Source: a phage. From it: 64,000 nucleotides of DNA. This document shows, one piece after another, positions 26,671-34,433 of this stretch (positions within the stretch are counted from its first letter, which is position 1; every line of letters begins with the position of its first letter). The position numbers and the translations under genes are program-made. The notes beneath the pieces are model-generated. The model made no database searches. It was not told the DNA's origin and was given only the letters and a program-made list of their open reading frames with translations. The stretch lies in sequence record PZ154897.1; one strand, given 5' to 3'.

Positions 26671-27057
26671 TTATTCGAGGGAAAGAAGATACTTACTCTG
26701 GTAAAACATTCCAGTAATATCATCTATCGTGCTTTGAATGGCTGGAGGCATTTCTTTATAAATGCTGTTAGATTGGTCTAGTATACGATCAATCATTTTA
26801 ATTGTGTCGGTAGGAAGTTTACTAGCATCTGGAATTGAAGGTGTGTATTTTCTACCAGAATACCCCAAATATTGCTCACCAAATTTATCAATCAAATCTG
26901 GCAACTCGGAGAAAATAAAATCGTATGCTTTGTGTCTAGCATAACTTTTAGTTTCAAAATGTGCAGAATGAAAATAAGCTTGTGCAGCCATTAATAAACC
27001 TAAGTATTCATCTGCCTTTGAAGGTTTTCCACTTTGTGAAAAGTCGCTGAATTTCAT
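26671..27057 (-). CDS. Hypothetical protein, 128 aa, downstream of rI
   Basis: ORF track; ATGA overlap with rI. Confidence 0.5.
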
Positions 27058-27347
27058 TCAGTCTCCAATTTAATGTTCATAATTCTAGCGTATGATTGTG
27101 CCATCTCCGCGCCTCGTTCTATACATTCAAAATCAGAAGAGCACGGGTCATTTTTATAGGTCGTTCTCATAAAACTATAGAATTGTTCAGACGATTCTAC
27201 GCTTTTATTTTCAAAAAGCATATAAACGTGCCTAATACCAGATTCCATAAATTTATCAAAATGAGGATCGACATTCGCTTCAATCGGTGGAGATAAAACA
27301 AATGACAATCCTAGCATGGCAAATAGTGCCGTTGCTTTTAAGGCCAT
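27054..27347 (-). CDS. rI: Lysis-inhibition regulator RI (signal-anchored periplasmic antiholin)
   Basis: 97 aa; MALKATALFAMLGLSFVLSPPIEANVDPHFDKFMESG..., recognised as T4 RI. Confidence 0.85.
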   Translation of the reverse strand: MALKATALFAMLGLSFVLSPPIEANVDPHFDKFMESGIRHVYMLFENKSVESSEQFYSFMRTTYKNDPCSSDFECIERGAEMAQSYARIMNIKLETE

Positions 27348-27614: not shown

Positions 27615-28196
27615 CTAACCGAGCTTTTTAGTTAATTCATTCCAATGTTTTCTACACAAAGAAACATAAATTTCATCACCAATACAGATTTGATTACCTT
27701 CTTTAACTGGTGTTCCATCTTCCATTAATCGAGCTGTCATAATAGCTTTTTTACCACAATGACAAACTGCTTTTAGTTCAATAAGTTTATCTGCAATCGC
27801 CAAAAGTTCTTTAGAACCTTCAAATAATTTTCCAGCGAAATCAGTCCTTAGTCCATAAGCCATAACAGGAACATTATATGTATCAACAATTCGGCTTAAT
27901 TGATGCACCTGTTCAGTTTTTAAAAACTGGGCTTCATCTACAAATACACAATGAATATCTTTTTGTGCTTCAGCCCATTTATAGAACTCAAAAATATCCA
28001 TATCATCCGTAATAATATTCGCTTCCTGCTTAATTCCAATGCGAGAAACGACTTCACAGACAGAATCACGAGTATCAATAGCAGGCTTAAGAACTAATAC
28101 ACCCATTCCGCGTTCTTTATAATTATGCGCAGCAGTCAAAAGAGAAGCAGATTTTCCAGCATTCATTGCTGCATAAGTAAAAATTAAACTCGCCAT
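27615..28196 (-). CDS. tk: Thymidine kinase
   Basis: 193 aa; P-loop NAGKSASLL; C-terminal zinc-binding cysteines CHCGKK...CRKH. Confidence 0.92.
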   Translation of the reverse strand: MASLIFTYAAMNAGKSASLLTAAHNYKERGMGVLVLKPAIDTRDSVCEVVSRIGIKQEANIITDDMDIFEFYKWAEAQKDIHCVFVDEAQFLKTEQVHQLSRIVDTYNVPVMAYGLRTDFAGKLFEGSKELLAIADKLIELKAVCHCGKKAIMTARLMEDGTPVKEGNQICIGDEIYVSLCRKHWNELTKKLG

Positions 28197-28205
28197 ATCA
28201 CCTTC

Positions 28206-28391
28206 TTAAAGCGTATTCACATAAGCTATTAATTCGTTTTCTTTCTTATCAAACCGATCAGCAAATTCTTCCTGTTGTTCGGGAGATAGCGGGCCGTATT
28301 CATCATAAAAGGCGTTTGCTTCTGTATGCTCATCTAGAAGTTCATGGATAAGCTCAAACAATTTATCTTTTTGTTCTTTACTCAGACTCAT
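28206..28391 (-). CDS. Hypothetical acidic protein, 61 aa
   Basis: ORF track. Confidence 0.45.
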   Translation of the reverse strand: MSLSKEQKDKLFELIHELLDEHTEANAFYDEYGPLSPEQQEEFADRFDKKENELIAYVNTL

Positions 28392-28557
28392 ATATTAATT
28401 TCCAGAAGTTTTAAAATAATTCGCTTTTGCTTAAATATTTCCATAGTTAAATGATCAGTATCTTTTTGACCAATTCCGATGGCAAAACCTTTATTAACAG
28501 CGAGTTCAATTAAATTATCGAGTTCACGTAACACTTCATATTGTAACTCAGAACTAT

Positions 28558-28785
28558 TCATTTTGGTTTACCTTCTTTAACAAAATCGGGATAAGGATAA
28601 AATCCTGAATAAAATCCTTCACCTTTATGATTAATGCATCCTTTATTAGAGCAATAGCACCAATAATCGAAATCACAAGCCATTTCATCATTGCATAAAG
28701 CAAAAACAACTGGCCATTTACACTTTTCACAATGTGCATTTTTAAGAATGCTAGTTTGGCTCATAACCATGTAACCTTTAAGCAA
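28558..28785 (-). CDS. Cysteine-rich small protein, 75 aa
   Basis: CEKCKWPVVFALCNDEMACDFDYWCYCSNKGC. Confidence 0.4.
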   Translation of the reverse strand: MLKGYMVMSQTSILKNAHCEKCKWPVVFALCNDEMACDFDYWCYCSNKGCINHKGEGFYSGFYPYPDFVKEGKPK

Positions 28786-28973
28786 TATTCTTCTACATGC
28801 TGTTTACGACCTTTCTTATCAATAAAGGTATATTCAACGAATGTTCCAATATAGTCTTTATCTACATCATGAGGACTATTAATTGGGCATTTAGTACGGC
28901 AAATGCGTTCCCATTGACGAATAATTTCTGCTTTGTTTTTAGGATCAAACGGATGCGGGTAATGTACTTTCAT
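28761..28973 (-). CDS. Hypothetical protein, 70 aa
   Basis: ORF track. Confidence 0.4.
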   Translation of the reverse strand: MKVHYPHPFDPKNKAEIIRQWERICRTKCPINSPHDVDKDYIGTFVEYTFIDKKGRKQHVEEYCLKVTWL

Positions 28974-29424
28974 AATCCACCACTATTAAATCAATATCAG
29001 GAGTAAACATGTCGATTAATTTAGAAACCTTATCCCAATCACCGCCAGCAATACCACAACCTATGCGTGGAATGTAAATTACTGGTTTAAACAAAAGGGT
29101 CTCTGCCTGTAGATTTAATTCTATCATGCAGTTTACTAAAGCACCATAATCAAGATTAGGACCCGGTTCGTATTGCGTATACAGGTTATAGCATATACCA
29201 AATCCCGTAGGACTATGTTTAAAAACAATAGACATATCGCCTAATTTATCACGAGAACCGTACTCGGTAGTGGTTTTATCTATTTCTAAAATTTTGGGAT
29301 AGGCCCTCGCTAATTGACCCGCTACACCTGAACCCATAGTATGAAAGCAGTTGCACCCGTGCGCAATAATATTACCTTGAAGAAATAGGGCGACAATATC
29401 GCCCTTGATATATTTTACAATCAT
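28945..29424 (-). CDS. Macro-domain-like protein (putative ADP-ribose binding or hydrolase)
   Basis: 159 aa; GDIVALFLQGNIIAHGCNCFHTMGSGVAGQLA and IPRIGCGIAGGDWDKV resemble macrodomain glycine-rich motifs; not verified by search. Confidence 0.45.
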   Translation of the reverse strand: MIVKYIKGDIVALFLQGNIIAHGCNCFHTMGSGVAGQLARAYPKILEIDKTTTEYGSRDKLGDMSIVFKHSPTGFGICYNLYTQYEPGPNLDYGALVNCMIELNLQAETLLFKPVIYIPRIGCGIAGGDWDKVSKLIDMFTPDIDLIVVDYESTLPASV

Positions 29425-29762
29425 CTAGTACTCAATCCTCGATTATAAGAATCTACCAAACGGTCAACCATTGAATGACAAGCGGCTTTATCTTTCTCCT
29501 CCGCAACTGAACATTCTAAGGTATTCCACTTTTTAGCATATCGTTTTAATAAAGTATCGTTCTTGTATCTGCTTGATTTATCTCTTTCTCCGTCTTTATA
29601 TGCATATATTAATTTCTGCGCAAATTCAGCTTGGCATGCTTTATTTTTCCCGCAATAATCCGCGGCAGTACGGTTTACATACTCTCTAATTTCAGTATAT
29701 GATGTATTTGCTAACGCAGAAAATGAAATTAATCCTATACATAAAACCAAAATTTTAGTCAT
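29421..29762 (-). CDS. Secreted or periplasmic protein with signal peptide, 113 aa
   Basis: N-terminal MTKILVLCIGLISFSALA; four cysteines in the mature part. Confidence 0.5.
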   Translation of the reverse strand: MTKILVLCIGLISFSALANTSYTEIREYVNRTAADYCGKNKACQAEFAQKLIYAYKDGERDKSSRYKNDTLLKRYAKKWNTLECSVAEEKDKAACHSMVDRLVDSYNRGLSTR

Positions 29763-30300
29763 TTACTATTTCCAAAAGTTTATTATTTTTAAGGTAGTTA
29801 GCCTTTTCTAGGACTTCAGAAGCATATTTAGAACCTGCTTTAACATTCCATCCCGAATTATAAGAGGATATAGCCTTTCTTATATCGCCCTTATGTATAT
29901 TTAACCAATAAGAAAGTTCAATGTACGCCCAGGAAGCTGAATTGGACCGTTTATTCAACATTCTTTTTATTTCAGCATCGGTCATATTATAACCAAGTTC
30001 CTTAACTCTTGCTCGCATTGTCGGCAAATAATTTTGGAACATTCCATAGGCATGATGCTTTGGTTTAGATTTTAAATTAACTCCGGCAGAGCTTTCTTGC
30101 CATAAAATAGCAGCCATTATATGACCTAATCCACCCTTGTGGATATTTTTATGTGTTTTATATTTTCCATCCTTAGAAAATTGTTCCCCGAATTGATACG
30201 CGTAACGCATGTTATCGAGTTGGACATTACTGAAAGTATGCTCGGAGCTATGTGCCATCATTGAAATGGCCAATAGACCAGCGAGTAGTGCTTTTCTCAT
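29755..30300 (-). CDS. Secreted lytic-transglycosylase-like protein (SLT-domain motifs)
   Basis: 181 aa; signal peptide MRKALLAGLLAISMMAHS; motifs WQESSAG, GMFQ, YNSG. Confidence 0.5.
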   Translation of the reverse strand: MRKALLAGLLAISMMAHSSEHTFSNVQLDNMRYAYQFGEQFSKDGKYKTHKNIHKGGLGHIMAAILWQESSAGVNLKSKPKHHAYGMFQNYLPTMRARVKELGYNMTDAEIKRMLNKRSNSASWAYIELSYWLNIHKGDIRKAISSYNSGWNVKAGSKYASEVLEKANYLKNNKLLEIVND

Positions 30301-30307
30301 GCTTACC

Positions 30308-30769
30308 TCATTGAGTTTTAATTACTGCTTTAGAAGCCTTTCCTGGTAAACGACGACTGTTGATAATTGCCATCCTACATTGAAGTGACGGGTCTTTGAA
30401 CTTCGCATTAGGTTTACAAACTGTAAATCCAAGCCAAAGATTTCCATCAGTGATTTCTAAACGCCCAGGACGATATTCAACCCCATCAATAAAATCCTCG
30501 TCAATGTCAGGACGCGGAGGCATACTCAGGAATTCATTAACTTCTAAAACATGGTCTTTTATTTTATGGAATAATTCAAAAACATATGTCTCATCAATCT
30601 CCCGTTGAATTGCACGATCAAGAAGATGTTGAGAATATTTTAGATGAAACGATGAGACCCCTGCTGCTTTTGATGCCTCACGAATCTCATTGTTAATTTG
30701 ACGAAACTCCGACTCAAAGTGACGACGAAGCTTATTTCGACGGATAAAAACTTCTGTATTGATAGTCAT
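30308..30769 (-). CDS. regB: Sequence-specific endoribonuclease RegB
   Basis: 153 aa, MTINTEVFIRRNKLRRHFESEFRQ; length, position and early promoter consistent with T4 regB. Confidence 0.7.
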   Translation of the reverse strand: MTINTEVFIRRNKLRRHFESEFRQINNEIREASKAAGVSSFHLKYSQHLLDRAIQREIDETYVFELFHKIKDHVLEVNEFLSMPPRPDIDEDFIDGVEYRPGRLEITDGNLWLGFTVCKPNAKFKDPSLQCRMAIINSRRLPGKASKAVIKTQ

Positions 30770-30796
30770 GTTATTCTCCTCTTAACTGATAGAAAA

Positions 30797-30826
30797 ATTA
30801 TACCACAGTCAAGAGGAAAAGTAAAC
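30797..30826 (-). promoter_or_regulatory. T4-type early promoter upstream of regB (-35 GTTTAC, -10 TATAAT)
   Basis: gtaaac at 30821-30826; attata at 30797-30802. Confidence 0.55.
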
Positions 30827-32969: not shown

Positions 32970-33386
32970 TTAAATGTAAATATTTTTGCCGTAATACTTG
33001 TACCAGTGTGGCTTCATTAAAATTTTTTCATCGAGTCGTTGTTGACTCAACCTAATAGCTGATTTGCATGGATTATAATCATTTTTCCATTCTACTGGAA
33101 TATCACTGATGTCAGGAACTTCAGTATCTTTTATACTAAACCCGCGTTTTAAGCATTCCGTTATAATGTCTGATTGACGCTTTCGCAAAAATTCTAACTT
33201 ATCGTAAAAGAACGTAACATGACCAGAACCTAAAATAAACTCGGAAGATATTTTAAAATCTTTAACTCGTTTACCATTTGCCACGTGTTTACGAATTATA
33301 CCAAAAACACGTGGCAATTCACGGTATTCTGCGATTAAATGCTGATCAGCAAGTTCAGATACTAAAGTCAAATTAATACGAGTCAT
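32970..33386 (-). CDS. denV: Endonuclease V (pyrimidine-dimer DNA glycosylase)
   Basis: 138 aa; [29 protein letters not shown], recognised as T4 endonuclease V. Confidence 0.9.
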
Positions 33387-33446: not shown

Positions 33447-33977
<531 letters not shown>

Positions 33978-34433
33978 TTAAAAGAGGCTGTTCATTATTC
34001 GGTAAAGTGAAGGACCCATCACATATTGCCACTGAGTACGAGGAATAAGAGCAAAAGCATCCATCTCTGGAATCATAACACCATCTTTATTTTCAAAATA
34101 AGACTCGCAATGGCAATTTCTAAACATCTCATGCTCTACTGGAATCGTATAATAAAATAACTGTAAGTCTTTATTACTAGAATATTTAAATACACCTAGG
34201 TCTTCTAGAAGGTCTGGATTATAATTATTAAAACCAGTCTCTTCTAAGCATTCTCTTCGTGCTGCATCTAGCGCGCTTAAATCAGAATTTTCTACACGGC
34301 CCTTTGGGATATCCCAGCGATGTGCCATCATTCCAGGCTTACGAGAACCAGTAACCCGACCCATAAATAAATCTTTATCTTCTGTCATAAAGATAATACC
34401 AGCTGATAATGTTTTCATTTTAATTTCCTGCAT
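33978..34433 (-). CDS. nudE: Nudix hydrolase NudE (e.1)
   Basis: 151 aa; Nudix box GRVENSDLSALDAARRECLEETG. Confidence 0.85.
   Translation of the reverse strand: MQEIKMKTLSAGIIFMTEDKDLFMGRVTGSRKPGMMAHRWDIPKGRVENSDLSALDAARRECLEETGFNNYNPDLLEDLGVFKYSSNKDLQLFYYTIPVEHEMFRNCHCESYFENKDGVMIPEMDAFALIPRTQWQYVMGPSLYRIMNSLF

Follow-up and report, generated by a model that had tools for sequence, protein, structure and literature searches.

We analysed three adjoining open reading frames (ORFs) of a Tequatrovirus (T4-type) phage, sequence record PZ154897.1, in a window of 64,000 nucleotides; the window is the whole stretch of DNA that was analysed, and the genome region is AT-rich, with a guanine-plus-cytosine content of about 35%. 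All three ORFs are present in the ORF list of the window at exactly the coordinates given in Table 1, on the minus strand. Comparison with the T4 reference annotation identified them as tk.4, vs, and vs.1, and the arrangement of these genes and regB in the T4 reference (NC_000866) matches that of the window. The original prediction for this DNA had missed these named T4 genes, including the middle ORF, which is the classical vs. Megablast of positions 28500-30800 returned 732 phage records, nearly all of them Tequatrovirus, with a best identity of 98.3%. Protein identity to T4 was 56.6% for Tk.4, 94.3% for Tk.3, 96.5% for Vs, 98.9% for Vs.1, and 99.3% for RegB, and Tk was also within 94-99%.

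Transcription runs leftward in the order regB, vs.1, vs, and tk.4. The three ORFs adjoin as had been predicted, but the macrodomain gene, which had been placed first, is the last of the trio because of the minus strand. The vs.1 stop codon and the vs start codon overlap by 8 nucleotides, and those of vs and tk.4 overlap by 4 nucleotides (ATGA), suggesting that vs.1, vs, and tk.4 are translationally coupled.

It is quite likely that the locus consists of three translationally coupled T4-type early genes, in which Tk.4 would be an anti-DarT2 macrodomain hydrolase, Vs.1 an exported transglycosylase, and Vs an exported disulfide protein. Gene identities, domain and fold membership, conserved catalytic residues, and export signals are supported directly, and the DarTG2 and minimal-medium phenotypes of T4 were taken from a preprint (bioRxiv 10.1101/2025.11.20.689424). 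Apart from a divergent version of the macrodomain and the predicted export signal of Vs, the locus itself is ordinary: it contains known T4 genes with published domain predictions and recent phenotypes for tk.4 and vs, and resemblances to macro and SLT domains were described as early as 2003-2006 (PMC1524935).

Table 1 Coordinates of the genes, codons, and sites discussed in the text (window numbering).
Feature	Position	Strand	Description
rI antiholin	27054..27347	-	T4 annotation; same strand, 2.1 kb beyond vs, split off by the tk.4...tk...rI.1 stretch
Mosaic block over tk.4	28932..29393 (approx.)		DNA 41-78% identical to T4, both flanks >=98% (sliding identity against NC_000866)
tk.4 / adfM	28945..29424	-	Stand-alone ALC1-like (TARG1/DarG/SCO6735-class) macrodomain, 159 residues, divergent allele
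Gln84 codon of Tk.4	29173..29175	-	At the catalytic-Lys position of TARG1/DarG, equivalent to the essential Gln85 of SCO6735; invariant in 47 sequences
Asn25 codon of Tk.4 (H-G-C-N motif)	29350..29352	-	Equivalent to SCO6735 Asn27, locking the Gln; invariant
vs	29421..29762	-	'valyl-tRNA synthetase modifier', 113 residues; predicted exported four-helix, four-Cys protein; mature form 95 residues, 11.0 kDa, isoelectric point 9.05
Vs signal peptide	29709..29762	-	Residues 1-18, MTKILVLCIGLISFSALA, followed by NTSY; heuristic passed
vs.1	29755..30300	-	Predicted exported GH23/SLT-type lytic transglycosylase-like protein, 181 residues; mature form about 163 residues, 18.8 kDa, isoelectric point 9.65
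Glu69 codon of Vs.1	30094..30096	-	Predicted catalytic acid, WQ-E-S motif; invariant in 37/37
Vs.1 signal peptide	30247..30300	-	Residues 1-18, MRKALLAGLLAISMMAHS, followed by SEHTF; n/h/c heuristic passed, site between AHS and S
regB	30308..30769	-	First gene of the leftward early unit; Pfam REGB_T4 E = 1.4e-68; 99.3% identical to T4 RegB
Sigma-70-type promoter-like site	30797..30825	-	Upstream of regB; TTTACT-17-TATAAT with upstream TG; consensus scan 10/12, consensus match only

The macrodomain had been proposed from the glycine-rich motifs GDIV...AHGCNCFHTMGSGVAGQL and IGCGIAGG, and an SLT-like enzyme from WQESSAG, GMFQ, and YNSG. These motifs are present in tk.4 and vs.1, respectively, and profile searches recovered both domains. 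Tk.4 matched Pfam Macro (PF01661) with E = 1.3e-7 and 32 bits against a cutoff of 22, covering 116 of the 118 model positions, and matched phrog_335 with E = 1.2e-71. An exhaustive HMMER search assigned 6,116 cluster representatives to the family at E <= 1e-3. In an alignment of 47 sequences, N25, G33, D49, Y82, Q84, P119, G122, and G124 were invariant, and H22 was kept in at least 90%. PDB was searched by sequence and by family profile, and the best matches were BT1257 (profile E = 1e-19), SCO6735 (2e-16), TARG1 (1e-15), Poa1p (6e-15), and DarG (7e-15); the next matches, TTHA0132 and viral nsp3 macrodomains, scored 7e-5 or worse, and MacroD-type proteins far worse. Tk.4 thus falls within the ALC1-like or TARG1-like class, not the MacroD or PARG types.

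We compared the active site of Tk.4 with those of its closest solved relatives. The Gln of its N-x-Y-T-Q motif aligns opposite 'MIGQ' of SCO6735 and BT1257 and 'LITK' of TARG1, and the SCO6735 study equates its Gln85 with TARG1 Lys84 and DarG Lys80 (PMC9411070). In SCO6735, the Q85A variant is inactive, the N27S variant is nearly inactive, and Gly128 is also needed; the enzyme removes thymidine-linked ADP-ribose from DNA and rescues E. coli from DarT (PMC9411070). Tk.4 has the residues of this type, namely the Gln at the catalytic position, the Asn of the H-x-C-N motif, and the Gly-x-Gly loop. Both SCO6735 (Streptomyces coelicolor, PDB 5E3B) and BT1257 (Bacteroides, 2AFC/2FG1) share with Tk.4 the H-x-C-N motif, the Gln at the catalytic position, and the PRIGCG(I/L)AGG-W loop. 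In contrast, SCO6735 has Val25, Lys34, and a longer Lys-rich mobile loop proposed as a DNA clamp, and Tk.4 lacks all three: it has Gly23 for Val25, Ser32 for Lys34, and a short YEPGPN loop without Lys in place of the long Lys-rich loop with Lys89. In the comparison with SCO6735 and BT1257, Tk.4 also differs in being a phage protein without a known link to a cognate toxin.

The macrodomain of DarG (PDB 5M3I/5M31) has the same fold class as Tk.4, and the T4 phenotype described below implies a common substrate. However, DarG has a C-terminal DarT-binding domain and catalytic Lys80, whereas Tk.4 lacks this domain and has Gln for Lys. The DarG equivalog model NF048014 (NCBIfam) gave Tk.4 27.7 bits against a cutoff of 250, over model positions 2-142 of 338 only. 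A captured DarG was therefore rejected, as Tk.4 scores far below the equivalog cutoff, has no C-terminal domain, and has the catalytic Lys replaced by Gln. Tk.4 is a Gln-type (SCO6735-like) ALC1-like macrodomain and not a DarG orthologue; it is better described as a DarG analogue in the same superfamily.

The function of the gene has been addressed genetically in T4. A screen of a T4 transposon library against DarTG2 gave tk.4 as its only significant hit; a clean tk.4 knockout was DarTG2-sensitive, and the gene was renamed adfM (bioRxiv 10.1101/2025.11.20.689424). T4 without adfA and adfN remained DarTG2-resistant (PMC11825919), in agreement with a need for tk.4 against DarTG2. The suggestion that a phage macrodomain could reverse DarT-type ADP-ribosylation matches these genetics, which concern the T4 orthologue only. 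Tk.4 of the window occupies the same slot as T4 Tk.4/AdfM, between vs and tk.3, and the two proteins (159 and 155 residues) align over their full length. Their first approximately 40 residues are nearly identical (they differ at 15-19 and 39-40), and all family-invariant residues are common, whereas the phosphate-binding loop and most surface residues differ. As the family-invariant residues are all kept, the window allele is probably active, and its specificity is assumed, by analogy, to be that of the T4 allele.

Tk.4/AdfM would be a small cytoplasmic macrodomain hydrolase, most likely binding the ADP-ribose that DarT2 puts on N3 of thymidine in single-stranded phage DNA. Hydrolysis of the base-ribose bond would restore replicable DNA and release free ADP-ribose. 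The invariant Q84, held by the invariant N25, would position the distal ribose, and an activated water would act rather than the Lys of DarG and TARG1. As Tk.4 has no toxin-binding domain, it would act, unlike DarG, by erasing the modification only. The window also contains a nudE-type Nudix hydrolase gene with a Nudix box (33978-34433, minus strand), adjoining the lysozyme gene e; since the T4 record gives NudE as active on ADP-ribose, its product could dispose of the ADP-ribose freed by AdfM.

The divergence of tk.4 is confined to a mosaic block (Table 1). Among sequenced phages, the tk.4 alleles form a window-type group (>=90% identity) in 313 records, a T4-type group in 224, and a third group in 159, the last being about 84% identical to the T4 allele. 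The sharply mosaic tk.4/adfM alleles of T-even phages, in at least three groups, may be the product of an arms race against differing variants of DarT2. A second mosaic block lies at 28160-28750 (tk.1/tk.2, between tk and tk.3), where identity to T4 is 10-55% with many gaps. On either side, identity to T4 is 88-100% (tk up to 28159, tk.3 from 28752 onward); the block contains small ORFs, one with a match to Pfam Phage_zn_bind (28558-28785, E = 3.3e-29). In public records, tk.4 is labelled 'phosphatase', 'RNase III inhibitor', or 'leucine aminopeptidase'.

Vs.1 matched Pfam SLT (PF01464) with E = 5.5e-5 and 23.2 bits against a cutoff of 21.3. The same match was obtained at E <= 0.01 for 33 of 37 Vs.1 homologues, with a best value of 1.3e-7. 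E69, G86/F88/Q89 (GMFQ), and Y147/N148/G150 (YNxG) were invariant in 37/37, and S70 was kept in at least 90%. Vs.1 is assigned to the lysozyme-like GH23 fold, and its SLT similarity was noted in 2006 (PMC1524935). Compared with the family-1 lytic transglycosylases Slt70, MltC, MltE, MltF, and EtgA, Vs.1 has only 13-21% sequence identity and an extra N-terminal helical segment (residues approximately 25-58). It also differs from these enzymes in being phage-encoded, early, and outside the virion and the holin-endolysin system. Homologues of Vs.1 were found in 2,086 phage records by tblastn, including Aeromonas, Acinetobacter, Vi01-like, and Felix-O1-like phages.

Both Vs and Vs.1 had been predicted to carry N-terminal signal peptides. 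Their N-termini have a basic n-region, an h-region with Kyte-Doolittle values of 2.9-3.3, and a small-x-small site (ALA before N in Vs, AHS before S in Vs.1), and both passed our heuristic. The cytoplasmic controls RegB, Tk, and lysozyme failed it, and Vs and Vs.1 scored above T4 RI, whose signal peptide is reported to be cleaved (PMC8385771). The N-terminus was hydrophobic and variable in 37/37 aligned Vs.1 homologues, and all distant homologues checked, from Aeromonas, Acinetobacter, Vi01-, and Felix-O1-type phages, have signal peptides.

Vs.1 would be made with a Sec signal peptide, cleaved after Ser18, and its periplasmic activity would be that of a family-1 (GH23) lytic transglycosylase whose only catalytic acid is Glu69. 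From early infection onward, and without depending on the late cytoplasmic endolysin e, it would break the N-acetylmuramic acid-N-acetylglucosamine (MurNAc-GlcNAc) bonds in murein. Vs.1 is most likely a Sec-exported family-1 lytic transglycosylase acting on murein, and the proposal of a periplasmic murein enzyme separate from the endolysin has bioinformatic support. T4 vs.1 is non-essential in lysogeny broth (LB). Homologues of Vs.1 appear in public records as 'endoribonuclease' or 'site-specific RNA endonuclease', labels that were transferred from the adjoining regB.

Vs matched phrog_1256 ('valyl tRNA synthetase modifier') with E = 6.5e-40, and a profile search recovered 67 clusters, all with Pfam PF26829 ValRS_modifier; tblastn found Vs in 796 phage records. 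It departs from T4 Vs solely within the signal-peptide c-region. The window protein is the same in kind as T4 Vs (PF26829, PHROG 1256), a family whose sequence features predict the periplasm whereas its name does not. In 10 homologues from five genera, mean pairwise identity was 33% in the N-terminal segment and 58% in the rest, and the layout of the signal peptide was always kept. Among 64 full-length family members, four Cys of the mature region were present in 64/64 and followed the pattern C-x5/6-C ... C-x8-10-C in 64/64, an A-x-A-type site was present in 63/64, and the strict n/h test was passed by 56/64.

In the structural model of Vs, residues 1-19 have a predicted local distance difference test score below 50, helices span residues 12-37, 41-60, 67-84, and 89-112, and the Cys pairs lie at two hairpin turns. 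Foldseek with this model gave generic helical bundles only (best E = 1.7) and no fold relatives, so a resemblance to T4 Spackle or known lysozyme inhibitors was not supported. PDB sequence searches with Vs returned nothing usable, and no NCBIfam model matched Vs or Vs.1. Nothing relevant on the localisation or signal peptide of Vs was found in the searchable literature. The features of Vs are those expected of a periplasmic disulfide-bonded protein; it would be exported and would fold as an 11-kDa four-helix protein stapled by two disulfides. In public records, vs is often labelled 'valyl-tRNA synthetase', which is the enzyme and not its modifier.

We compared the order of these genes in related phages. 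The order regB-vs.1-vs-tk.4 is kept in Tequatrovirus, Mosigvirus, Gaprivervirus, Mosugukvirus, and a Klebsiella phage, and Jiaodavirus KPV15 has an extra gene for a small secreted protein between vs and tk.4 (locus L011, 2351-2743). In Acinetobacter phage Kimel (locus L008, 1441-3287) and four metagenomic contigs (L012, L014, L015, and L016), tk.4 is absent and the order is vs.1-vs-X-(Y)-rI. In these five loci, hidden Markov model matches had E values of 1e-41 to 1e-73 for Vs.1 and 1e-21 to 1e-34 for Vs. Protein X has 125-141 residues, a signal peptide, and a mature N-terminus of A-W-E/D; protein Y, of approximately 100 residues, has a hydrophobic N-terminal (transmembrane) anchor and is missing in L016. 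Neither X nor Y has Pfam matches or counterparts in the window. An RI-like (PF24205) antiholin, homologous to the rI product of the window (E = 3.4e-13), closes the cassette. The depositors of Kimel independently annotated secretion signals on all five cassette proteins, with a periplasmic one for Vs.1. The arrangement vs.1-vs-X-(Y)-rI is predicted to be an ancestral exported-protein cassette with rI as its last member.

Several points weigh against the assignments proposed here. The window Tk.4 is only 56.6% identical to the genetically tested T4 allele, its phosphate-binding loop is IGCGIAGGDW where T4 has IGAGIGKGNW, and it lacks the Lys-rich mobile loop and Lys34 by which SCO6735 holds DNA. 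The SLT score of Vs.1 is marginal, and PDB sequence and profile searches with Vs.1 gave no usable match. Signal peptides were judged by a home-made n-region/h-region/(-3,-1) heuristic and not by SignalP; we infer the actual export and cleavage of Vs and Vs.1, as well as the enzymatic activities, from sequence. In the searchable literature, no biochemical assay was found for T4 Tk.4 or Vs.1, nor for Tk.4, Vs, or Vs.1 of this phage. Finally, the export features of Vs conflict with the classical report that it binds cytoplasmic valyl-tRNA synthetase (ValRS).

The last conflict leads to two tentative readings of Vs. In its textbook role, Vs binds cytoplasmic ValRS (Muller and Marchin 1975, 1977, as cited in PMC8076793), and the T4 reference annotation and reviews citing these authors (PMC8076793) keep this name and function. 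It is possible, although doubtful, that Vs is a cytoplasmic 10-13 kDa ValRS-binding peptide whose N-terminus is unused for export, or of which a fraction is exported, and whose Cys might bind metal. In vivo, infection by T4 rescues a temperature-sensitive ValRS, and this rescue was the basis for selecting vs mutants. The vs knockout has a nutrient-dependent phenotype, which its authors linked to translation (bioRxiv 10.1101/2025.11.20.689424). However, no modern confirmation that Vs binds or modifies ValRS was found in the searchable literature. A cytoplasmic location is also difficult to reconcile with the near-universal cleavage site, n/h layout, and four Cys of the family, and with a fast-evolving N-terminal segment that nevertheless keeps its signal-peptide layout. 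The predicted mature mass of 11.0 kDa also counts against it, being nearer than the 12.9 kDa of the precursor to a ValRS factor of approximately 10 kDa. Five distant loci place vs in a cassette of export-signal proteins, with a periplasmic transglycosylase on one side and the periplasmic antiholin RI on the other, and His-tagged full-length Vs was insoluble in E. coli (PMC8076793). We put forward, as a speculative alternative to the textbook role, that Vs would be a Sec-exported, disulfide-stapled periplasmic protein in an ancient envelope-acting cassette with Vs.1 and RI. The minimal-medium defect would then be an envelope and not a translation phenotype, and the association with ValRS would be secondary or post-lysis.

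Whether Vs works with Vs.1 was considered separately. Vs might be a periplasmic partner of Vs.1, as a regulator, inhibitor, or pathway factor, and might form with RI an envelope or lysis-timing module, but we regard this as improbable. The two genes overlap by 8 nucleotides, and vs.1 precedes vs in phages ranging from Tequatrovirus to those of Acinetobacter and to metagenomic relatives, with further exported proteins and rI behind them in every case. In the T4 transposon data (bioRxiv 10.1101/2025.11.20.689424), vs was the strongest hit in M9 versus LB, with a log2 fold change of -2.19 (supplementary table 6); vs.1 had -0.87 (p = 0.0055, adjusted 0.155), and tk.4 did not drop. In liquid LB, mean insertion counts were 26.6 for vs and 22.6 for vs.1, compared with 179-767 for regB, tk.4, tk.3, and vs.3. 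These approximately 10-fold lower counts, which are not discussed in the preprint, point to a common mild fitness cost of vs and vs.1 insertions. The joint pattern, low in LB with a drop in M9, could arise from a common pathway or from a polar effect of vs.1 insertions on vs, and the latter counts against a partnership. So do the 2,086 phage records with Vs.1 compared with 796 for Vs, and the lack of a structural match between the Vs model and lysozyme or transglycosylase inhibitors or T4 Spackle. Vs as an obligate partner of Vs.1 was rejected as a universal rule: in phiAS4 (Aeromonas), Vi01, and Felix-O1-type phages, vs.1 is present and no Vs-family ORF lies within 1.5 kb, whereas the positive controls were found. 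In the same data set, regB insertions rose in M9 (log2 fold change +1.17; bioRxiv 10.1101/2025.11.20.689424).

A different main substrate for Tk.4 is unlikely. The candidates are ADP-ribose-1''-phosphate, O-acetyl-ADP-ribose, uracil-linked ADP-ribose on RNA, Glu-linked protein ADP-ribose, and the products of the T4 transferases Alt, ModA, and ModB. Database names such as 'phosphatase' ('A1pp phosphatase' being an old label), 'Poa1p_like', and 'RNase III inhibitor' point in this direction, as do the presence of yeast Poa1p among the closest solved relatives and the removal by SCO6735 of Glu-linked protein ADP-ribose and uracil-linked ADP-ribose on RNA as well. However, the name 'phosphatase' derives from a domain label and not from an assay, and the sole T4 tk.4 phenotype found is DarTG2-specific, the gene being dispensable both in LB and M9 and against each of the remaining defences that were tested. 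It is also unlikely that Vs.1 has lost catalysis and only binds, or that it is a GH23 enzyme acting on a glycan other than murein. A catalytic Glu and three family-1 signature motifs invariant in 37 diverse homologues are not expected of a dead enzyme, and for this fold the obvious substrate in the periplasm is murein.

We examined the regulatory signals and neighbours of the locus. A sigma-70-type promoter-like site precedes regB (Table 1), and the consensus scan found no site of comparable quality directly before vs.1. A MotA-box middle promoter before vs.1 or regB was rejected, as the sole nearby match lies inside tk.4. This match (29118-29143, minus strand; TGCTTTA, 13-nucleotide spacer, TAGAAT) is in the divergent part of tk.4 and faces tk.3; the T4 middle-promoter pattern has 14 matches in the window compared with 5.2 expected by chance. 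A hairpin at 29387-29405 (minus strand), with a perfect 8-bp GC-rich stem, a 3-nucleotide loop, and then a T-rich run, lies 20-38 nucleotides inside the tk.4 coding region, in its T4-identical part, with a folding z-score of -2.74. It might be a transcript attenuator or stabiliser between vs and tk.4, or a chance occurrence. Plus-strand ORFs of the region were treated as spurious because they are short, overlap conserved minus-strand genes, and have no family matches.

The neighbours in the window are T4-type genes for thymidine kinase, RI, RegB, endonuclease V, and lysozyme. The endonuclease V gene denV (32970-33386) adjoins the lysozyme gene e (33447-33941) directly, with no internal-protein gene between them. 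T4 has ipII and ipIII between denV and e, and in phage CrRp10 a single gene for an internal virion protein lies upstream of denV; neither arrangement occurs here. The denV/e junction is thus another variable spot.

As a gene find, the locus adds little, since both domain similarities had appeared in print by 2006 and a preprint of 2025 described how tk.4 counters DarTG2. What is added beyond the annotation is the Gln-type mechanism and mosaic alleles predicted for AdfM, the wide distribution of Vs.1 and its firm fold assignment, and the contradiction between the name of Vs and its export features. AdfM would be a Gln-type eraser present in at least three strongly divergent alleles that are exchanged as a cassette, making allele-specific counter-defence directly testable. 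Vs.1, a confidently predicted secreted transglycosylase, ranks among the accessory proteins found most widely in large virulent myoviruses. The family-wide export signal of Vs, its disulfide pattern, and its position in a secreted cassette contradict the textbook cytoplasmic function, and the protein deserves a localisation experiment.

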